Part shown: piece after piece, positions 47,115 to 61,880 of the stretch
Layout of the letters: every line of letters starts with the position of its first letter
Numbering within the stretch: the first letter of the stretch is position 1
Assembly: GCA_027923505.1 (NCBI GenBank)
Contig: BROI01000012.1
Span: forward strand, 310,001-374,000
Length of the DNA: 64,000 nt
DNA from: Mayamaea pseudoterrestris
Lineage: Eukaryota
Direction of reading: 5' to 3'
The notes under the pieces: model-generated
Database searches by the model: none
The model's input: only the letters and a program-made list of their open reading frames with translations
Told to the model about the DNA's origin: nothing
Program-made: the position numbers and the translations under genes

Positions 47115-48928
47115 ATACATATAATAGATATTTTCTATAGCAAAATACATTTACATGGTAGAGTACAGTACTATGCGTACTGTTTTGCTTTGCTTCACAA
47201 CTACAAGTACTGTAGTGTATGTATACAATTTCATGCATCCACTGAAGTTAGCTGAAGTATCGGTGGGACATTTGTTTTTGAAACGATTGCTTTTTTACTA
47301 TTGCCTGAAACAGCTGATAATTGGTCCAAAACGATCCGTTACAACTTGCACTTCACTCTCCACGCTAAGTAACGGACTACACAACTGTTGACGTGTAACC
47401 CAACGATGCAGCCTCATTCTTCGTTCCATTCATAAGTAGATATCATAACATTCGCTGAACTCAAGCGTTTATAGCATGCCAAACAAAGCCGTTTGGAGCG
47501 CTGCTGCTCTCGGCGTTTCAGGTGCGTATCTTTTGAACGAAAACCTCAAAGATCGCCGTGTCAAGCAGGAGGAGGAACAACAGCGTCAGATGTATGAGGT
47601 CCAAGAGGAAAAGAAACAACGTGCAGCGGCGATGAGACAGAGAACTGGTAGTACTGCAACTTGGGCGAATGGTGATGCAAACGCAGATAACTTGTCTCCA
47701 TTCTTTGCCGCGATGAGGGAACGATGGGCAATGATGCTTGACGACCTTGAAATTCTAGCAAAGAGCTCCCTTGGACGACAAAAGTCCTTCAAACTGCCTC
47801 TTATTCCGTCAGAGCATAACGATGCTGCCGAAGTTGTGCTTGGAGCATTACTCGCGCTAGGTGATCCAGGTATGGCCGAGGATCTCCAAAAGTATTCCCA
47901 AAATCCCGGTCTTGCATTAGCCAAATTGTCAGCAGCATCTTTGTCACTCATTCGAGGTGTCTTTGAACGAAAATGGCCATATGATATCAGTGATGGCGAT
48001 CTGGGAGGAATTGTGCAGCTTGCGATTCGAGACGATGGTCCACAGCAAGGCGAACCTTCCATGTTTGTTCTTGAAAGCTGTAAGCGGAACATTTCAGATC
48101 TTGCTGGTTTGGTGGCAAGCCTGGGCCTATACATATTTCAGGAAGATTGCTTCCAGAATAAGCTGTGCGGCACGCCGCCAAAACTTCGCATGAGGTTCAC
48201 TACCGCTTCAACTGGGTGGAATGCAACTGGGTGGAATGGGCGACTCTACTTGACCAATTTCCCGAACAAGAGTTTTTCTCTACCAGCCTACCAAACAAAT
48301 CAGAATACATGGGCGTGTAGCTATACAAATGTCCGTCTGGAAAGTGGTACGAGTCAAACATGCCGTGCTCCTAACCTCGAACGGGCCATGTATCATCTCG
48401 CTACGGCCATGGCGTACAGAACTGCCAATGTTGCCGCAAGCCGCTTGAAAGAGCTAGAAGAAAGCCTCTTAGTTGCAAAACCCAATCCTTGGAACCAAAA
48501 AGGATTGTCACTGGAGCATGTGGCAGTCAAAGCTTGTAATGAAACGGAACTGCTGCAAATCCTGGAGCAGAGTGATCGCACGCTGATTGAACACAATCAA
48601 ACCAAGATCTGCGAGACAATATCGTCTATTCTAGAAATAAGTATTCCTTTTCCTGAAAATCCGCTGGATACGGATGAAGTCCAAGGTCCGTCGCCTGCAT
48701 TGAAAATGGAGGTGGCTACCTTCGCACAAGAATACGTCCAGTTGCTCAATCTGTCGTACTGCGAAGTGCCTAAATTTCGAAACAAAGCTCCATCTCAATG
48801 TGTCAGCAAGTCGCGGGTGACTGACCAAGCTATCAAAGGTTTCATAACAGCAGTGCCCCCAGCGCATCATCGCTTGCGTCGAAAGTACGAGAAAAACGAA
48901 CGCGATCGGTACGTTCTCGAGTTTAACT

Positions 48929-49134
48929 TAGCAGGTATGCAACAGAAAGTAGTATCACTATGCCGTTAAAAGTAGCGCACCTCGGAATCGAACCAAGGAT
49001 AACCGGCTATATCACCTCTAAACACGCTGCTACTTTTCCGTCTGCTAGTGTACTATATGCTGCATACAAGGCACCATGCACTATGACAAGTAAAGGTATC
49101 GCTCTGGTTGCTGTTTTTCGTGTGCAACCTGCTA
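48929..49134 (-). repeat. TRIM 3' LTR, 206 bp
   Basis: Identical by eye to 49400-49605; preceded on the minus strand by the PPT. Confidence 0.93.
48973..49031 (-). ncRNA. tRNA-like 59-nt element in the TRIM LTR (second copy at 49444-49502)
   Basis: AGCAGCGTGTTTAGAGGTGATATAGCCGGTTATCCTTGGTTCGATTCCGAGGTGCGCTA then CTTTT. It has a T-arm with B-box GGTTCGATTCC and paired ends, but no proper anticodon arm. Confidence 0.5.
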
Positions 49135-49399
49135 CTCCCCTAGCTTTGCGCGTCATAGTGCTAACTCGTCTTCCGTTTCAGCTGGCATTTTCGTCTCGCG
49201 GGGGAATGTCACTTTTCAGTTTTTCCTGCGGCGTTTCGGGCTCGGCGCATCTTTGTGCACTCCCCAGGGTCCGCGACTCCCCATCGTTCGTTCGTGACAA
49301 ACCCGTGCAACCAGTGAATTTTTTGCTTTTTCTTCGCTTGATTCGATCGCAACTCGAACCAGCAGCCTCAGTCCAGATCTCTCGATAGGGACGCTACCA

Positions 49400-49605
49400 T
49401 AGCAGGTATGCAACAGAAAGTAGTATCACTATGCCGTTAAAAGTAGCGCACCTCGGAATCGAACCAAGGATAACCGGCTATATCACCTCTAAACACGCTG
49501 CTACTTTTCCGTCTGCTAGTGTACTATATGCTGCATACAAGGCACCATGCACTATGACAAGTAAAGGTATCGCTCTGGTTGCTGTTTTTCGTGTGCAACC
49601 TGCTA
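49400..49605 (-). repeat. TRIM 5' LTR, 206 bp
   Basis: Identical by eye to 48929-49134; followed immediately on the minus strand by the TGG-initiated PBS. Confidence 0.93.
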
Positions 49606-50106
49606 AACTGGTGGCCCTTCCACCATGTTAACAGTAAATTTCTAATTCGTGCCATTTGTAACAGGATTGATCGCAGCAGAAGTTTGGTCACACCTAGTCC
49701 ATTCTTAACAACAGCTTTCTTGGTTGGAGTTTGTGTCCTATTCGTTGCTTCGATGTGGACTATGTTCTATCTCCTTTTTGCCCGTTACATTGGCATCCAT
49801 GCATTTGTTTTAGCAGGACAGTTCATTTGCTCAGTTGGACTTGGCGTTTGGAGCGCAATGACAACGCTGCAAATACTACGATACCCTTTCCGCGTTCAGA
49901 ATGGCGATTCATTAGTGAAAGATGCTTGGCTGGTGTCCGAATGCATCGTTGAGACATTTGTGCGCAAGCTCGCGATCCTTTGTGGCAAACCTCCGTTATT
50001 CGAGAGAGAACTACATCGATTGCAAGTGGCTTGTAAGCAAACGCACCATGTTTGGAAACGCCGAATGGCCCGGCGGGATTTTTACGTCGCTCTCAAGCGA
50101 AAGTGA

Positions 50107-52327: not shown

Positions 52328-52700
52328 TTTCCATTGTCTGTCAAACAATATCATGCCTGACAGTAGTGGACAGCATAACCTGAATAAGCAGTCATATGTC
52401 CCGAAGCCAATGATATTTTTCCCTATCAATCTACCGGTAGCACTTGATAGAGCTATTATTGCGGGGGGAACCCCGTCATTCCGGTGCAGGGGGAAGAAAG
52501 CCGCACCGGACAATTGAACACCAAGAAGCACATGCACCTACTCGAGACTTTACCTGATACCGCCTTACTACGCTCCGCGCGGCGAAAGCCTCGCGACGTC
52601 GATTCTCGTCTCCTCATTCTGTTGCACGAAGTCAACTGCAGACATCCGAGTCAAGCAGTTCCAGTACTTCATTAGATAGTCTCATAAGCTTCAGGCTACC

Positions 52701-53524
52701 ATGGCTGACGCTCCTCCTGTCCCTCACGCCATTGGGGGCCCCGCCGGCATCTCGACCAACGCCTCACTCCTCGACTTCTTCGCCTCGCCGACCAACGACG
52801 CCCTTCGCGGCAACAGCCGCGCGTGGATTGAGCAGCTCGACCCACTCGTCCACGACTACGATGGCGCTGACATTCTCGAACGAATCGTCAGCGTGCCTCC
52901 GACGCGCGCCGGCGCTTACATCCGTTACCATCGCACGGAACCAGGCGACGCGATCGGGACGATCAAGGTTTACACTGGCTTTCAGCAGTACGTCGCGGGC
53001 CTCGTCATGACGCCCCTCGACGGGCGAGTCTACGCCACGCTGGGCAACCTCGTCGCCGGCCAAGGGCACTGTGTACGCATCGTGGAACGCGACTTCGACG
53101 CCCTACCGAACAAGACGATCCCAACGACCGACGATATCGCGTGCGCCTGGTGGGACGACCACGACTGGACCGGCATGCTAGGCAACTGCGTACTCCAAGA
53201 CCCGGGATTCGTGGATGACGGTTCGGTCGGCGACCCGCTTCCGGGACGCGTGGCGCGAGTGCGACGCACGTGCTACTTGCAGCACGAGCTGGTGGAGCTT
53301 CTGATGGATCACGACTACGAACCCGCCAAGGCCTACCGCACCGTGTTGCATCGCGCGCGAGCGCTCGACCAAGTCGACAATTATCGTGAACTACTCGACT
53401 TTCTCCTTGTCTGCGCCACCTCGGAGCGGAACAATCGACCGGCGTCGCTCGCCTTGGCGCCGCCGCCGGTGCCAGTGCTGATGACGCAATCCCTCGCCGA
53501 GCAGCGTGTCGCCGTGCATCGCAT
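52701..53524 (+). pseudogene. 3'-truncated GC-rich ORF fused to the copia LTR remnant; possibly ORF1 of another retroelement
   Basis: ATG-initiated frame of about 275 codons runs directly into LTR sequence at 53525, and its stop comes from the LTR. Identity is not established. Confidence 0.45.
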
Positions 53525-53630
53525 TCACGCGATCGTGAGGCTGTGGTGAGCCGCGAGTGCCGCTGTGTCACCCTATCGGACATTCGGTGTGACTTGCCCG
53601 ATTTTCGCTGTTTTCGTTCGCATCCTGCAA
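53525..53630 (-). repeat. Copia 3' LTR remnant (106 of 247 bp)
   Basis: Matches 59792-59897 and adjoins the PPT. The distal part and TSD are missing. Confidence 0.9.
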
Positions 53631-53654
53631 CTCCCCTCAAGTCATACCTAATAG

Positions 53655-56600
53655 TTAGATTCTTTGAAGAGCAGGTTCTTTAAGTGCTTGCTTGCCGTAG
53701 CCCGTGGAAGAAACTTGGTAAGTACATCCGCCGGGTTTGTCGTTCCCATGATGTGGTTGGAAATTAATAATTCCCGCCGCAATCGCTTCGCGTACACGGT
53801 GAAATGCCAGTGCATTGTGTCGCTTCGTCAGACTAGAGTGCGGTAGGTTGCTGCTTTGCGTTACCGACTTGTTGTCTCCAAACATCCATGAAGGTCCGTC
53901 GAGCGGAACTCCCAACATGCGTAGCGTGAAGCGAAGATCCATGATCTGCTCCGTGCTCACTCTCGCTGCTACAAACTCCGAGCCGTACGTCGCCGTCTCG
54001 ACCGTCGCTTGGCGTTTCGAAAACCAATCAACGACTGTTCCATTCAACATGTGTAGCATGCCCATCGCTGCCCGTCCCGTCGTGTAATCGTGGTACAGGT
54101 TCGCATCTTCGAACGTTGACATTCGCACCGCCTTGCCGCGCGGCGTGGGCATGTTCCACGGAAGCTCTTCGCAGATCTTGCCGTACACACTGTAATCCCA
54201 ATCCATCTTGTCAACTGTCGCGTATCGCTCGTCCGTTGGAATCGAAACGTTGAATCGAATCGCTCCATCCGGGTATCTTCGTAAGTATCCGCAAATATGC
54301 TTCAACCGTTCCAAGTGCCCCGCTCGTGGCGCAGCTCGGAATCTCCCCATAGTCATGACAGCACAGTGAATGTCGAATCGACATAAACTTACTGCCCATT
54401 GCAACGCACCAATTATCGATTGATACTTCGCAATTCCGTCGTCGTCAAGTTCTTTCGTTTCGTCGAGTTCCGGATGATCGCCGTCGCGTAGTGGACTTGT
54501 CTGCGGTCGCGGTTCCTCGCCGAACATTTCTTTGTAGTTCGCTAGTAGTCTTGTGACGTACTTCTTCGCTCCGAAGCAGAGTACGCCGTCGTCGTCTCGC
54601 CAAACGTCTGCGCCCAAATGATATGCCAATGGACCGACGCCCTTCAACTTGTAGTTGTAGTTCTCAATTAAAAGATCCGTTAGTTCCTTCGGATTCTTCA
54701 TCGCTATCGCTAAATCGTCGACATACACACAAACGTATTCGTAGTGCGTGCCTTTATCGCGCATCCACACGTCCGGTTCTGCGATACACGGCATGAAGCC
54801 AATGTCGCGGAGCGTGTCTGAAAAGTGCTCGTGCCAGCGTGCGCCTGACGTGCGAAGACCGTATAATGCCTTCACGATCGTGAGCGTGTGACCCTCGAGC
54901 TCCCCGAACTCCGGACCTGCCACGATATAAACCTTCTCTTTCGTTTTCGCTTCCAAGTATGCGTTGCCGACGTCAGCTGCCCACAGTTCCAGACCGTTGA
55001 GTTCCGCTAACATCGCTACCATTCGTAGACTTCGCAATGACACAACGCCCGAGTAAACTGAATCCTTCGGCGGCTCTGTCATATGTCCTCCTGCAACGAG
55101 TCGTGCTTTCCGTCGCAAATCGTGCTTGACATCGAATATCATGTGCACGTTTATTCGTTTCCACGGCGTCGGCATAACCTTACCGACTCCTTGATCTGCG
55201 AACGTGTCGTAATCATTTATCTGATTTAATTCCGTTCGAATCGCATCCGTCCACAGCGTGTTGCCGTTGATCTCGTCGAGAGCTTTCGCATCTTTATAAT
55301 TGCGCGGCAACCTTACGCCGAATTTGTAGCGTACGCCGTTTGCTTTCGATTTTCGTTTCGCCGCTGTTACCATCTGTCGAAACTTCTTTCGCTTCCGAGT
55401 GTAATGCTCCAGCTGCTTCCATCCTGGCTTGTCGAGTAAGCCGTGCTTGAGTCCATACTCTGCGATCGTTATCGGATCGTCCTTCTTCATGATCGCGAGA
55501 GGCTCCCACGTCGTCGTTCCGTCAGTCCACTCGACGAGAACGTTACTTGAACTTCCTTTGTATGTCGGATCGTTCGGTTTCAAATTAAGCTCGTGTCCGA
55601 TTACCTTCGTGAATACCCACTGAGTCGCCGGATCGTTTCGTATATCTTCGTCCATCTGTCGTTCGATTAAATCCGACAGTTCGTTGTAACTTATTAAGTC
55701 TTTCGCTGGCTCCTCTCCCATTTGGATTAGGAAACCTTTCGTCGTTTCGAGTAGCTCGTTATCGCGTACTTCGATATATTCGCATACAGTCGCCGCATTT
55801 TCTGACCGTTTTCGTGTTCCCTTACGAACGTAGGTCCGATGAGTTCGCTTGGGAGAAGCAGAGGGCATTTATTCCCTGATTCTTGCTCAGCCCCTTCTGA
55901 AGAACTCGCTGGTACGTTGGCGTGGTTCGCCATCGGAATTGTTTCGTCGTCGTTTCCTTCGTAGTTGTCGTGACTACTTTCTGTCACATGCGTGCTATGG
56001 TAGCGTCCTGTCGCGAGATCTGGAGTTTCAAAATTTCGCTCGCTTGCGCGTGTAGCTTCTTCAGAAATCTCCCCTCCAGACTCAGGGAAGGAAGGCAACT
56101 CGTGGTAACAAGTAGCTGCGCGAGACCACGTTGGAGCGCGGAATCGCCTGAAGCGTGTCGTCCGTCAGAACGAGAAAAGTCATGTGCGGACCGCTATTCT
56201 CTGCGATGCCCACGAATCGGCCGTTGCCAGATCGTACCGCCGAGGGAAAACTCCCCTGCGCCTCAAACGTGACCGGTTCCCACCACTTGAAATGTAACAA
56301 AGGCGAAATATCCGGCAGATTTCCGAACGCAACTTCCGTTGGCGTGCGCCATCCCAGCGATTTCGTCGCGAGGACGTTCAGTATCATGATTACGAATTTA
56401 ATCAGCAAAACCCAGCAATGGCCTGGCGAACCCGAATCTCGTTGGAGGTTCTCCATCATTGGCTTAATGTGCGACGTGTGACGTTCGCATGGATTTTGTT
56501 CTGGATGACCCGGTTCTGTGGTCACTTGAGGAATATTGTACATCCGACAGAGATCCTCACAGCCTTGCCAGTCTCCGACTTGGCATTGTCGCTGAGCAGT

Positions 56601-59435
56601 CCGTTAGGAGCGCCCACTTCGCGGATAAAATCCTCTAACGCGTTTGACATTTCGCTCTCCGACTTCATCGGGTAGCCGCGCGTGTAAAAACTTTCTCGTC
56701 CAACAAAGAGCTGCATCTTAGTAGCTCCCCATGCCCTAGAATTCCATCATCCAAAGCTGGCGTGTCAGAGTGTATCGTGTCCGTGGCGAATAGTTCGCGC
56801 AACCGCTGAACGTTCGCGGCCGGAAATCGTGATTTCGTGAGGTGTCGAAATGGTAATCGCGGGTGTGCGCTGAGATGATACCATGCTTCCGTGTGACGTA
56901 AAAGTCTGTTGAACGCGCTCAGTCGGGACCCATCCGAGGTACGGCCGAAGAGCATTATAGTCCGGTTCCTTGCTTCTTAGCTTCCGCAAATTAACGCGTG
57001 AAAACTGAGCGTGTCGCACGCACCGATTGATCAGTACGTCAAGTTCGTCGCCAGTGCGTGTCGGCGTGTGACGATTGCGGTGCGTGATACCGTCATCATC
57101 GAATCGTTCGTCGAAAGATCCATAATCATGATCTCGTTCGTCGAAATCGTCGTGCGCGTGCTCGACATCGTAAACAGTCGGGTCCCACGGCACGTCCGAC
57201 GTCATGATGACAGTCGGATACTTATCCAAATCATCGAACGTGGGTTTCGTCACGTCCAAGTACACCAGGCCATCGCGAATTGCCAATGGCAAAACGTAGC
57301 CTCCAATGTTCGTCGTAATTCGTTGCGTTCCGCCAAACATGGTCGGAATATCGTCGACGCGATGTCCCATTGCGCGCAATTGATTCGGGCAATGAATCGT
57401 CGGTCCGTCTCGCTTTAAAGCATACTGGTGACACAGAAGCAGAATGGTTTCGCCACTAAGGGTCTTTGCCAGTCCAGCTGCAGTGCCAATCTTGAGAGCT
57501 GGGACAATATGATCGTCAATACCAGTCACATCCACCTCGGCGTTCGTTTCCGAAACGACGAGCATGTCTCCTCCGCATAAGCCTCCGTTCGCGCCGCTGT
57601 CGATGAGCGCGCCTTCGTTGATCCGCTCGTAGTGTGCGCGATTGACGCGCATACGACGATGCATGTTGAAGCTGAATGTACCTCGTCCGGTGTTATCAGT
57701 CGTCAACGATCCTGTCACTTGCTGAGTTGTAGTACTCGCATTGTTCGCTTGCAGAACCGATCGTGCAGCCGTTGGACTGACATTCCACTATTGCCGGGCT
57801 GAATATTAATCGTGCCAGGAACGCTTGCGTGATCGTTCGCTACAGATTCCGTCGCGTGACGCTCTTGATGCGCCGCGTTGACTTGCGTCTGCGTCGTAGC
57901 CGTGCCTCGTTGGGTGCGCGGTCGCCATCCGTTTTCGGGTGTCTTGGGCGCCGTCGCACGCTTGTCCTTCAACTGCTTTCGCTGATCAAACTTCATCTCC
58001 AACCAGACTTCATCCTTCACGCTCGCGTGAGGTTTCTTCATGATCGCTGCAAATCGTTCCGCCGATAAGCCGCTTGGAGTCGCGCCGCCATTGCCGCCGC
58101 CGCCTCCTTTCGTTCCACTAGACTGCGCTTGATTGATTGTGCGCTTAGTCTTCGTCGTCGATGGGTGTTTCTTGTCATACTTGATGCAGCACTCTTCTAA
58201 GTGCGCGTACAACTGCGCGAAATTGTCTTCCGAGTCGTGTTGCCCCATGTGTTTCTTGATGGCAATCATTCCGTCAAAACCTGCTAGTGATGCGCTGAAT
58301 CCTGTGTGCTCGGAGAAAGCGTCGCGTAGCATGTCGTATCGTTGTAAACCTGTCAGAGCTTCTGCGTCCATTTCGAGCAGCCAGATGACTTTCTTGTAGA
58401 ACAGTGCGAGAAATTCGATCGTCGGCCGTGACCACTTCTCGGTCAGCCGCATTCCCTGCAGTTCCGTTCGCGCGCGTTCCTTCTCGATGTGAGCAGTAGC
58501 GCCTTCTTCGTATCGCGTTCGCAATCGTTGGTAGACTTCGCGTCCGTCCATCGTCTTCTTGAACTGCTGTACTGCGAGTGATGCAGACGGAGTTCGACAG
58601 TGCGTGAGAAAGATCCTGTATACAAACACATTCTTCTTTGCATACGCCTTCTGTTCTTTCGGTCCCTTTTCCTTCGGGTCATAATCGTCGTCAAAGACTT
58701 CGTGGAAGTCATGCAATGTAGCGATGACTTTCAACTCGGAAATCCACTGTTTCCACGAGGAATCCAGCTTCATTTCTTTACAATCCCTCGCCGAGAACTT
58801 GATAGACTTCGTAAATTGGTCTGAATACTTCTCGTCGTCTTCGTCGTCGCCGAGGTCCAGTACGGATGTCGGTGACTGCTTCGTGCCACGTCCACACTCG
58901 TCGGTGGCACCTTGTCGGCCGAGGCAGGCTTCGACTCGTTGCCTTCGTTCGTTAGCGTGGAGTCCTTGGATTCGTCCTTCTTGGATTCCGTTTCGCTTTC
59001 CTTCGCTGGAGGTTTCGCTCCGCTTCCGCTGCCCACGCTCGCAATGTTGCGCGCTTGGACTCGTTCCTTCGCTCGTGCTGTGACGAACGTCGCCAGCGTT
59101 TCGGTGGTCAGTTGCGACCATGTCTTGATGTCCGGCGACTCTTGCGCCAAATACCATTCGATCGCGTTCGTGATCGTGCGTTGTTTCATCTTCGTTAGCG
59201 AGTGTTCGCTCGTTTCCTGCGTGACATTGTCGCCATCGTCAGTCGTCGTCGTTGTCGTCGTCGTGACGTTCCACTTCGTCGCGAAATCGTCGTACTCCAT
59301 CTCGATCAGTTGCGTAAGCGATTCTACTCCGAGTTCGTCGAATAACTCCTTGAACTGAGGATCTTGGAAAACGCCTACGTTCTCTTCGTAAACATGCGCA
59401 AACGCCGCGTCTTTCTGCGCGCGAGTTTCCGCCAT
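53655..59435 (-). pseudogene. Copia gag-pol broken into about eight overlapping frames
   Basis: Gag from ATG 59435 (MAETRAQK). Protease ALIDSGANGG. Integrase FATDT, SDNAKSE, TEPGHPEQNPCER. RT RKARLVAGG, ADVGNAYL, KALYGL, YVDD. RNase H EDAN, ATYGSEF, GDNKSV. Confidence 0.9.
56069..56076 (-). promoter_or_regulatory. Candidate central polypurine tract
   Basis: GAGGGGAG, identical to the 3' PPT at 53631-53638, located just after the integrase core (codes SGGE). Confidence 0.55.
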
Positions 59436-59650
59436 CGTTGTCGTCGTGACAATGTTCTTGCTATCACCTGCGGAACTTTCCGGGCCAAGAACCAACGTGC
59501 GTCCACGTTACTTCGTAAATCAATAGTACTCTTCGTCGATAAAGTCTCTATGCCGAGGCAATGAGTCTCAAGACAGTGTTAATCTTGTAACTTGTAAATC
59601 AAATCGTTGCACCTTTCGCTTGTAGCTGTCCTTGGATGGCCAATCCAAGC

Positions 59651-59897
59651 TTGCAGTTGCTACAATACGAGAGACGAATAAATCGCTTTCTTAACTCTTC
59701 AAGCTTAGTAAGTCTGCTTGTTTCTACTCTATATCGCACTAGTTTCAGCAATATACTTGTTGAATCGCTTCGAAGCCGTCGCTGCCACGCATCACGCGAT
59801 CGTGAGGCTGTGGTGAGCCGCGAGTGCCGCTGTGTCACCCTATCGGACATTCGGTGTGACTTGCCCGATTTTCGCTGTTTTCGTTCGCATCCTGCAA
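59651..59897 (-). repeat. Copia 5' LTR, 247 bp
   Basis: Bounded by the inverted repeat TTGCAG...CTGCAA. The right 106 bp match the 3' LTR remnant. The left boundary is inferred from the inverted repeat only. Confidence 0.75.
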
Positions 59898-60481
59898 CTG
59901 GCGACAGTGCAGTGCAACCATGAAGCTCCCAAGTTCATTTCCAGTGACGGGCCCTCTGCGGCCACTGGGGTGGAATACGGAGGTGATTGTAAGGGCTGCA
60001 GTGTCAAGGGGAGTCAAGGCAGTGGTCAGTGGTCCTAGCAAGGCAAGAGCACAAGAGTTGTCAAGGTTCCTGGCGACAGTGCAGTGCGACCATGAAGCTC
60101 CCAAGTTCATTTCCAGTGATGGGCCCTCCGCGGCCACTGGGGTGGAATACGGAGGTGATTGTAAGGGCTGCAGTGTCAAGGGGAGTCAAGGCAGTGGTCA
60201 GTGGTCCTAGCAAGGCAAGAGCACAAAAGGTGTCAAGGTTCCTGGCGACAGTGCAGTGCAACCATGAAGCTCCCAAGTTCATTTCCAGTGACGGGCCCTC
60301 TGCGGCCACTGGGGTGGAATACGGAGGTGATTGTGAGGGCTGCAGTGTCAAGGGGATTCAAGGCAGCTGGCAGTGGTCCTAGCAAGGCATGAGCACAAGA
60401 GTTGTCAAGGTTCCTGGCGACAGTGCAGTGCGACCATGAAGCTCCCAAGTTCATTTCCAGTGATGGCCCTCTGCGGCCACT
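59898..60481. repeat. 172-bp tandem array (~3.4 copies); a further degenerate copy at ~60733-61005
   Basis: CTGGCGACAGTGCAGTGC recurs at 59898, 60070, 60242 and 60414 with near-identical units. Confidence 0.95.
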
Positions 60482-61760
60482 GTGCCAAAGCTCAAACCTG
60501 CTCCAATGAGCTAACCTGTGCCAATGCACCGACTTGCTCCAATGACCTAACCTGTGCCAATGCATGAACCTGCTCCATTGAGCTAACCTGTGCAAAAGCT
60601 CGAACTTGCTCCATTGAGCTGACCTGTGCCAATGCATGGCCTGCTCCATTGAGCGAACCTGTGCCAAAGCTCGAACCTGCTCCAATGAGCTAACCTGTGC
60701 CAAAGCTCAAACCTGCTCCAATGAGCTAACCTGAGTCCCGACTCTCTCCAGTGACGCTAACGCCTGTGAACGGAGGTGATAGTAGGCTGCTGTCAAGGGA
60801 GCCAAGCAGTTCAGTGTCCTAGCAAGGCAAGATGGCGTTCCTGAGTGCAGTCAAATGAACGTTCTGCCCTCTGCCGGACTGGAGGGTGTAAGGCTGCAGT
60901 GTCAAGGGATCAAGCACTGGCTGTCCTGCAAGGCAAGAGCGTTCAGTTCCTGGCCAGTGCATGCGACCATGAAGCTCCAAGTTCATTTCCAGGAGCCCCT
61001 GCGCACCGGCAAACCTGCTCCAATGAGCTAACCTGTGCCAATGCACTGACTTGCTCCAATGACCTAACCTGTGCCAATGCACGAACCTGCTCCATTGAGC
61101 TAACCTGTGCCAATGCATGGCCTGCTCCATTGAGCAAACCGGTGCCAATGCATGGCCTGCTCCATTGAGCTAACCTGTGCCAAAGCTCGAACCTGCGCCA
61201 ATGAGCTAACCTGTGCCAATGCACGAACCTGCTCCAATGAGCTAACCTGTGCCAGTGCACCAACTTGCTGCAATGAGCGAACCTGTGCCAATGCACCGAC
61301 TTGCTCCATTGAGCTAACCTGTGCCAATGCACGAACCTGCTCCAATGAGCTAACCTGTGCAAAAGCTCGAACCTGCTCCATTGAGCTGACCTGTGCCAAT
61401 GCACGAACTTGCTCCATTGAGCGAACCTGTGCCAATGCACCGACTTGCTCCATTGAGCTGACCTGTGCCAATGCACGAACCTGCTCCAATGAGCTAACCT
61501 GTGCCAATGCACCAACTCGCAGCAATGAGCGAACCTGTGCCAATGCACCGACTTGCTCATGGCTGACTTGCCATTCATGAGCTAACCTGTGCCAATACCG
61601 GAGCGAACCTGTGCCAAAACTTGAACCTGCTCCAATGAGCTACCTGTGCCAATGCACCGACTTGCTGCAATGACCTAACCTGTGCCAATGCACGAACCTG
61701 CTCCAGTGAGTGAAGCAGCGCCAATGCACCAACTTGCATCAATGCGTTAACCTGCGCCAA
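60481..61760. repeat. 36-bp minisatellite built from alternating 18-mers, in two blocks (~60481-60732 and ~61010-61760)
   Basis: Consensus GAGCTAACCTGTGCCAAT + GCACGAACCTGCTCCAAT, decaying toward 61760. Confidence 0.95.
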
Positions 61761-61880
61761 TGAGCTGTCAGTGATGTGACAGGCCAGTGAAGTTAAGTAA
61801 TGGGTAGAAATCCAATAGTACATTGCGCTATACTTGTTAAATCAATACCACTGCCAACCAGTGTAGTTAACCAGCATGGG

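Follow-up and report, generated by a model that had tools for sequence, protein, structure and literature searches.

An inverted copy of a TRIM-type LTR/primer-binding-site junction in the pol frame of a young copia family of the diatom Mayamaea pseudoterrestris

How does the coding region of one retrotransposon come to carry, in the opposite orientation, the primer site of another, and does the copy serve a purpose there? The question is raised by a 64,000-nucleotide stretch of the Mayamaea pseudoterrestris genome (positions 310,001 to 374,000 of contig BROI01000012.1, assembly GCA_027923505.1, forward strand; hereafter the window), which holds a Ty1/copia-type long terminal repeat (LTR) retrotransposon and a small non-autonomous LTR element of the TRIM (terminal-repeat retrotransposon in miniature) type. 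Within the pol frame of the copia lies a segment of 52 nt, here called the cassette (55973–56024, minus strand), which is the reverse complement of a TRIM-type U5 (unique 5′) end (25 nt), primer-binding site (PBS, 11 nt) and leader (16–17 nt). A preliminary description of the locus read the two elements as a helper-parasite RNA-RNA system. We put the probability at about 0.55, a little better than even, that the cassette is instead a lineage-specific recombination relic, an inverted capture of U5, PBS and leader that was carried along as a young copia family amplified.

The window was compared with itself by BLAST over its 64 kb, and local alignments were made by the Smith-Waterman method with a strict and a relaxed scoring. 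The copia sense strand of 55973–56024 matches the plus strand at 49372–49424 in 46 of 53 columns with one gap; in the self-BLAST the same block, 49372–49424 against 56024–55973, stands at 86.8% over 53 columns (E 2.0e-9). The sequences first quoted are correct, and the observation holds in every detail that was checked. Under either Smith-Waterman scoring the block stays at 53 and 52 nt and does not extend. Its partner in the TRIM, on the minus strand, comprises the U5 end (49424–49400), the PBS TGGTAGCGTCC (49399–49389) and the first 17 nt of the leader (49388–49372). When the entire TRIM was compared with the entire copia by short-word BLAST, no second inverted block came up.

The complementarity to which this gives rise concerns the sense RNAs of both elements, and the genomic strand that the two insertions have in common is irrelevant to it; the preliminary description was right about the complementary RNAs and mistaken in deriving them from that common strand. 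Written as sense-sense RNA pairs, the seven non-identical positions are G.A, C.A, a bulged C, C.C, C.A, U.G and G.U, that is, four plain mismatches, one bulge and the two wobble pairs that had already been pointed out. The suggestion that the copia RNA presents a mimic of a tRNA 3′ end is not sustained, as the stretch is internal to a 6-kb RNA.

The cassette is read through in the pol frame, where its translation is ETPDLATGRYHSTHVTESS and its codons at 55973–56024 (minus strand) give (E)TPDLATGRYHSTHVTESS. The window copy of the copia is split into five frames and could not, as it stands, encode P0005, an intact hypothetical protein of M. pseudoterrestris with 1602 residues (MPSEU_000421100; the record gives a 1.24-Mb contig) that is 99.6–100% identical to the window wherever no indel intervenes. 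P0005 reads ...ESGGEISEEATRASERNFETPDLATGRYHSTHVTESSHDNYEG... across the cassette region, and because this intact protein holds the same peptide, at about residues 810–828, the frame is the true pol frame, as the first account had it. The Pfam family RVT_2 matches the window open reading frame (ORF) at 53655–55868 with an E value of 5e-26 (92.2 bits; the cut-off is 31.6) and residues 1096–1307 of P0005 with 89.3 bits. Upstream of RVT_2, residues 591–651 give a weak rve match (20.8 bits, below the cut-off of 32.6; E 4.7e-4), and the cassette peptide falls between this weak integrase-core match and RVT_2. P0007, one of the related proteins introduced below, has the same rve/RVT_2 pattern.

The host element, a degenerate copy, occupies 53525–59897 on the minus strand, with gag-pol homology from 59435 to 53666. 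The part of its 5′ LTR that is common with the 3′ LTR lies at 59791–59897 (TTGCAGGATGCG...GATCGCGTGA), and the 3′ LTR as present lies at 53525–53630, preceded by the polypurine tract (PPT) TTGAGGGGAG (53631–53640). Self-BLAST aligns 53508–53632 with 59778–59899 as direct repeats at 96%. The 3′ boundary of the 5′ LTR is uncertain, since the window copy may have lost part of its 3′ LTR. After the common LTR part the copia reads TGCGTGGCAGCGACGG, with no obvious TGG-type PBS. No target-site duplication was found at its ends (flanks GCCAG and ATGCG), and the window copy is probably rearranged, lying between a tandem array and another repeat. The leader contains a 7-bp hairpin at 59630–59648 (minus strand; CTTGGAT-TGGCC-ATCCAAG, −8 kcal/mol for a 31-nt piece) and a 10-nt palindrome, GCTTCGAAGC, at 59766–59775 (minus strand); the two recall the 'conserved hairpin site' of GalEa elements (PMC5445492) and dimerisation palindromes.

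Whether the cassette belongs to the family or to one damaged copy was judged from read contigs of four runs (X1, X2, X7 and X8), and the statements that follow refer to the contigs, joints and variants listed for them. Contigs of all four runs differ from the window copia copy by a common set of about 12 listed one- or two-base indels (for example +CT at 56098, +T at 55905, −1 at 55891, −1 at 55858, +A at 55852 and +T at 55793), and when these are applied a single frame runs through the copia region. The indels across 53525–59897 would be seen if the window copy were decayed, or if the assembly carried indel errors in repeats. Long contigs differ from the window by 8–10 letters in about 2.8–3.4 kb, and one joint, 59791→53525, has 108 nt that fit both sides. 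The cassette is spanned by contigs of three of the four runs, namely X1 record 5 (54963–56171), X7 record 20 and X8 record 26 (both 53525–56317), which differ from the window by 4–8 letters. None of the joints or deletions removes it, and none of the variants falls inside 55973–56024, which is not proof of invariance. Because these contigs span the cassette, no joint skips it and P0005 holds its peptide, the cassette is family-wide and not private to the window copy.

Both elements are abundant. Measured as read depth, which is not copy number, the copia bins exceed the single-copy bins beside them by a factor of about 30–70 in X1 and 100–250 in X2; the TRIM bins reach a comparable depth, and the two elements are at high depth in all four runs. 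In X7 and X8 copia and TRIM are present and the single-copy sequence between them is nearly absent, a pattern that fits a small admixture of the same organism; these two runs are not treated here as separate species.

The poor state of the window copy, with its dozen or so (~12) small indels relative to the read contigs and its missing target-site duplication, might have suggested that the match was due to chance, to an assembly chimera or to a nested insertion private to this copy. We consider that reading refuted. An E value of 2e-9 is hard to reconcile with chance, contigs listed for three of the four runs span the cassette, and intact P0005 contains the peptide; the match ends sharply without extending into a larger insertion, and its flanks are coding and can be aligned to relatives. 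The preliminary description had itself named a chimera or a larger nested insertion as what would undo its case, and both are ruled out on these grounds.

To place the insertion in time, the family has to be set against its relatives. A phmmer search with the 145-residue window ORF against 1.84 billion representatives gave three matches, of which P0001 and P0002 were dropped as repetitive, unrelated proteins. Three protein searches yielded 17 related copia polyproteins: P0003, P0006 and P0021 are fragments, 40–49% identical to the linker region of P0005 (residues 740–900), and P0007–P0020 are 14 long proteins, 24–51% identical over the query region, four of which align over only about 30%. Neither the cassette peptide nor any 4-mer from it is found at the corresponding place in any of the 17, so that the cassette, present in other copies of its own family as the first account had asked, is lacking in these related copia proteins. 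BLASTP of P0003 against the window ORF leaves a 17-residue gap exactly over ETPDLATGRYHSTHVTE, and MAFFT sets the same gap over the cassette for P0003 and P0006. The site is a hypervariable acidic linker between a putative integrase and reverse transcriptase (RT): in the 12 proteins with both anchors, P0005 included, the stretch from GRFVG to ELIGxTF ranges from 84 to 141 residues. Given the absence of the peptide from all relatives and the gap over it, the cassette is, on these alignments, a derived insertion in a spacer that appears tolerant of almost anything.

Further pattern searches added no instance. A 22-mer pattern covering both junction versions had a sole metagenome locus, L001, which was rejected as a chance match; it has 25 nt in common with the TRIM junction, no other similarity to the window, no homology to copia proteins and a GC content of 42%, and it looks bacterial and coding. 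Among viral contigs, an alignment of seven copia proteins gave 84 pattern matches, none of which was confirmed.

The TRIM occupies 48929–49605 on the minus strand and measures 677 bp, far below 1.5 kb, with LTRs at 49400–49605 and 48929–49134 and an internal region of 265 bp. Its LTRs, of 206 bp each, are 100% identical in the self-BLAST; the PBS follows directly after the 5′ LTR and the PPT CTAGGGGAG directly precedes the 3′ LTR. No gag or pol was found in it, and tblastn gave no match of the copia proteins. AGTT flanks it on both sides (49606–49609 and 48925–48928). Contigs of X1 and X2 at single-copy depth represent an allele without the TRIM, with a joint 48911→49640 at which 728 nt are replaced by 47 letters; since 47 letters are the 51 flanking nt minus one 4-bp duplicate, this is the same site without the element, although an imperfect 5-bp duplication also fits the arithmetic. 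An empty site of the expected length at single-copy depth makes the insertion a young one, borne probably by one haplotype only.

Two further observations concern the TRIM. It lies inside a long plus-strand open frame, 47476–50106, in which ORF 47476–48969 enters the element by 41 nt and ORF 49558–50106 continues in the same phase; since the phase is kept and the 681 nt of the TRIM with its 4-bp duplication are divisible by three, the element may have interrupted a host gene, and only on this haplotype. The 497-residue part of that frame has no Pfam match. The LTR also contains a tRNA-like stretch at 49440–49505 (minus strand), repeated at 48969–49034. In it GGTTCGATTCC is perfectly box-B-like; 37 nt upstream stands TAGCAGCGTGT, which resembles a box A in part, and TTTT comes after GTGCGCTAC, which is acceptor-like. 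ARAGORN found no tRNA in the LTR, nor did Rfam at E values up to 1.

Comparison of the two versions of the junction bears on the direction in which the sequence moved. The U5 end of the TRIM and its own U3 (unique 3′) start form a perfect 8-nt terminal inverted repeat (TAGCAGGT / ACCTGCTA), of which the cassette version (TAGCACGC) has two changes. The 11-nt PBS ends in TGG, which we take to call for a tRNA with U72-A73-CCA, initiator-tRNA-like; the primer would presumably end in ...GGACGCUACCA, and we assume it to be the initiator Met tRNA, with GGACGCUA before the added CCA. As the cassette is derived, the terminal inverted repeat is perfect in the TRIM and no longer so in the cassette, and coding sequence is unlikely to give rise to a tRNA-type PBS by chance, we infer that the transfer went from an LTR/PBS junction into pol. 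To judge from its sequence, the TRIM version looks like the working original. The opposite course, in which the LTR end and PBS of the TRIM were built from the antisense of the copia coding cassette, had been among the options of the first account and could appeal only to the 53 nt in common and the mosaic look of the TRIM LTR. It is very improbable, in that none of the 17 relatives has the inserted cassette, which is derived within the copia lineage, and an intact terminal inverted repeat beside a tRNA-type PBS is not what chance would be expected to make of coding sequence.

The two elements are also related at their other end. The TRIM's last ~25 internal nt, its PPT (..CTAGGGGAG, 49143–49135) and the first ~30 nt of its LTR (together 49105–49165, minus strand) align in sense with the copia 3′ untranslated region, PPT and LTR start (53652–53600); the alignment score of 43 is reached by none of the 2632 background windows, and 23 of 27 positions agree in the core block. 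As these parts align in sense, the TRIM is by its sequence related to this copia lineage, from which it plausibly derives by deletion. The copia's own 5′ end gives no such match: its LTR/leader junction at 59791 scores 20 against the TRIM junction or cassette, a value reached by 8.4% of 3626 background windows, and an alternative LTR end near 59652 scores 14–16, with 65–82% of the background as good. With both placements within background, the cassette was rejected as a copy of the copia's present LTR/leader junction. The copia contains 21 pairs of inverted repeats, none joining the cassette to its own 5′ region. In X1, low-depth contigs join a 27-nt piece of copia leader (about 59585–59612) through 18 other letters to the TRIM-type PBS (49401), and also to the copia LTR start (53630); the genome may contain further mosaic relatives made up of copia and TRIM parts, though the side lengths are short and the indication weak.

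Kinship of this kind opens the way to a self-derived inverted duplication, in which the cassette would stem from the U5, PBS and leader of the copia's own ancestor, kept to this day by the TRIM, and the LTR body and 5′ junction of the copia would have been exchanged later. The TRIM would then be the internal-deletion relative that its 3′ end suggests, the 46/53 (87%) of the cassette block and the 23/27 (85%) of the PPT/LTR-start block would fit one split time, and the unrelated LTR/leader junctions would mean that one 5′ end was indeed exchanged. We nevertheless hold this unlikely: no trace of the old junction is left at the copia 5′ end (the score of 20, 8% of background), and an internal antisense copy of an element's own PBS should hinder priming in cis. 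With present data the two derivations, from the copia's own ancestor and from the TRIM by capture, are indistinguishable.

The cassette lies 44 nt downstream of an internal copy of the 3′ PPT octamer, as first described. This octamer, GAGGGGAG (within CTGGAGGGGAGATT; 56069–56076, minus strand), is a candidate central PPT and encodes the GGE of ESGGEIS. With both strands of the 64-kb window searched, GAGGGGAG occurs twice, at 53631–53638 (the 3′ PPT) and 56069–56076, both on the copia sense strand; about 1.05 copies are expected by chance, and at least two were seen in 29 of 100 shuffles. In the linkers of P0003 and P0006–P0015 the only conserved feature is a G-(G)-E motif, often after NLRLD. 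Its recurrence in most relatives may reflect a conserved central PPT and would fit a protein feature, such as a protease or structural site, equally well.

Could the cassette have a selected function? In the reading first proposed, copia genomic RNA would pair through the cassette with the U5, PBS and leader of the TRIM over about 46 bp. Such a handle might bring the TRIM into copia particles by co-packaging, or might mask its PBS from the tRNA primer as a defence against a parasite; the double-stranded RNA might also feed RNA interference. The duplex prediction called for at the outset came out strong, at −87.1 kcal/mol for the copia-TRIM sense duplex against −37.2 ± 5.0 (minimum −51) for 200 shuffles. 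The PBS 11-mer with 5 adjacent nt is perfectly complementary, two of the mismatches are wobble pairs, the TRIM is a relative of this copia, both elements are at high depth in all four runs, and the cassette is fixed in the copia family. As every copy seen has the cassette and the TRIM is active, an interaction of the two RNAs is physically plausible.

Several observations speak against selection for that pairing. The duplex energy is a trivial consequence of the 46/53 identity and adds no evidence of its own. All 17 relatives lack the cassette, which sits in a spacer tolerating any sequence, the four plain mismatches and the bulge are uncompensated, and the copia family is young, so that fixation of the cassette needs no selection. 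The TRIM, moreover, has recently transposed amid cassette-bearing copias, as its identical LTRs and empty allele attest, and any block would accordingly have been leaky. From the helper-parasite proposal the arrangement, the kinship and the possible long duplex survive; a function is not supported, and we regard a selected handle as unlikely. The cassette is not yet evidence of a new mechanism; as a structural feature of one young copia family it is real, and it is unusual.

For the recombination relic that we favour, the following course can be proposed. A fragment of about 51–53 nt, comprising the U5 end, PBS and leader start of a TRIM-type element, would have been copied in inverted orientation into the integrase-RT linker of the copia. 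The donor would be this TRIM family or an autonomous ancestor common to TRIM and copia. On the copia sense strand the order is complement of leader, PBS and U5, which is minus-strand polarity for a TRIM-type element. One route would be a double template switch of plus-strand DNA, started at the nearby internal PPT, onto a co-packaged TRIM-type RNA; by another, a genomic copy that was later to serve as the master would have taken up a piece of cDNA where it was broken. The insertion would have kept the reading frame, and the acidic spacer would have put up with the 17 added residues; recent amplification of the copia family would then have raised the insertion to high copy number. The ability of the copia and TRIM RNAs to pair would be a by-product and not a selected function.

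Several points weigh against this account. Every copy of the family seen has the cassette, in a genome in which the TRIM is active. Within-family conservation or neutrality is not measurable, because the accessible copies are near-identical. The 16 nt GGACGCTACCATAGCA, made up of the PBS and 5 nt of U5, are intact in the cassette, which could hint at function; by hand arithmetic a mismatch-free block of 16 nt has a chance probability of about 0.07, and the PBS alone of about 0.18. The distance of 44 nt to the internal PPT copy could carry the same hint. The cassette length of 52 nt is not a multiple of three, and a single clean insertion therefore requires one further base or an adjacent indel. 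Lastly, a search that covered part of the genome found no donor better than 46/53.

The surroundings of the copia copy are themselves repetitive. Tandem arrays start exactly at the outer edge of its 5′ LTR (59898–61762): a 172-bp unit in 3.4 copies with 95% matches at 59898–60482, then 36-bp repeats at 60480–60733 and 61012–61762. Beyond the 3′ LTR, 52695–53524 is itself a repeat (X1 depth 327–765 against about 50 for single copy), and other copies run on differently after 53524. This segment was considered as part of a related copia and set aside, being without homology to copia proteins; its first ~30 nt are weakly like the copia leader start (score 40 against a shuffle maximum of 33). The Mayamaea genome is put at about 27–30 Mb with 19% repeats, mainly Ty1-copia, in PMC9724779.

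How helpers package and prime non-autonomous LTR elements, and whether they take counter-measures, is poorly understood. The locus offers a concrete pair that is open to testing, in a diatom that can be cultured and whose genome is small, at about 30 Mb. One partner is a TRIM that moved recently, the other a copia family of very high abundance that is to all appearances intact, and the sense RNAs of the two are complementary over the TRIM primer site. Were the handle real, an autonomous LTR retrotransposon would for the first time be seen to encode within pol an RNA device aimed at a non-autonomous partner. As a mere passenger the cassette would be a curiosity of one family. Even so, a relic is informative, as an inverted U5-PBS-leader fragment near an internal PPT is a recombination footprint between the nucleic acids of two retroelements, and such a footprint supports the meeting of copia and TRIM in one particle. 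The claim that the arrangement had no prior description agrees with our search of the open-access literature by titles and abstract starts, which found no inverted, in-frame copy of a partner's U5-PBS inside pol. The PBS 11-mer, in three spellings, appeared only in unrelated papers, and Maumus 2009 (PMC2806351) has nothing on PBS or PPT.

Parts of the arrangement have counterparts in known systems. Central polypurine tracts occur in Ty1 (PPT2) and in lentiviruses, and like these the copia has a second copy of the 3′ PPT core in its integrase-RT region; unlike them, the copia copy is known from sequence alone, and its GGE is possibly conserved for the protein. In HIV-1, a tRNA-like sequence in U3-R reportedly aids minus-strand transfer, a finding ascribed to Piekna-Przybylska et al. 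in 2010. The likeness lies in an internal stretch identical to part of the element's own or its partner's primer tRNA, which in HIV-1 is said to have come from recombination during reverse transcription. Only 11 nt of the cassette, however, can be tRNA-derived; the flanking 25 nt and 16–17 nt match an LTR end and leader, so that the source was a PBS region and not a tRNA.

LTR elements are controlled by 3′ tRNA fragments. An RNA with the sequence of a tRNA 3′ end can occupy a PBS, where it might prevent priming or set off RNA interference; in HIV-1, according to PMC2770672, an 18-nt tRNA-derived RNA pairs with the PBS. The cassette differs from such small RNAs in lying within the 6-kb coding RNA of another retrotransposon and in reaching into U5 and leader. 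Self-priming elements of the Tf1/TAR type likewise have an element-encoded RNA segment that is complementary to a PBS, and the fungal GalEa copias, with their conserved hairpin, lack a classical tRNA PBS (PMC5445492 and PMC6317226); the copia of the window has no obvious TGG-type PBS after its LTR either. In Tf1/TAR self-priming the 5′ end of the RNA is used on its own PBS, whereas the cassette is internal and matches the PBS of another element and not the copia's own junction.

A further parallel lies in TRIMs and other non-autonomous LTR elements that have internal ends, and not LTR bodies, in common with a copia, as Helenus LTR-1_PTrit has with Copia-9_PGr in Kojima 2024 (PMC10886601); diatoms and stramenopiles have no occurrence in that text. 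The tRNA-like stretch in the TRIM LTR resembles the Helenus/TRIMp3 class described there, in which the LTR holds a tRNA-derived Pol III promoter. As in that account, the TRIM is bounded by two short LTRs, next to which lie a PBS and a PPT; its homology in sense to a copia of the same genome takes in the 3′ internal end, the PPT and the start of the LTR, and its LTR body, as with Helenus, is a different one. Unlike Helenus as there described, the TRIM has a 5′ internal end that is unmatched at the copia 5′ end and whose sole counterpart lies inverted within pol.

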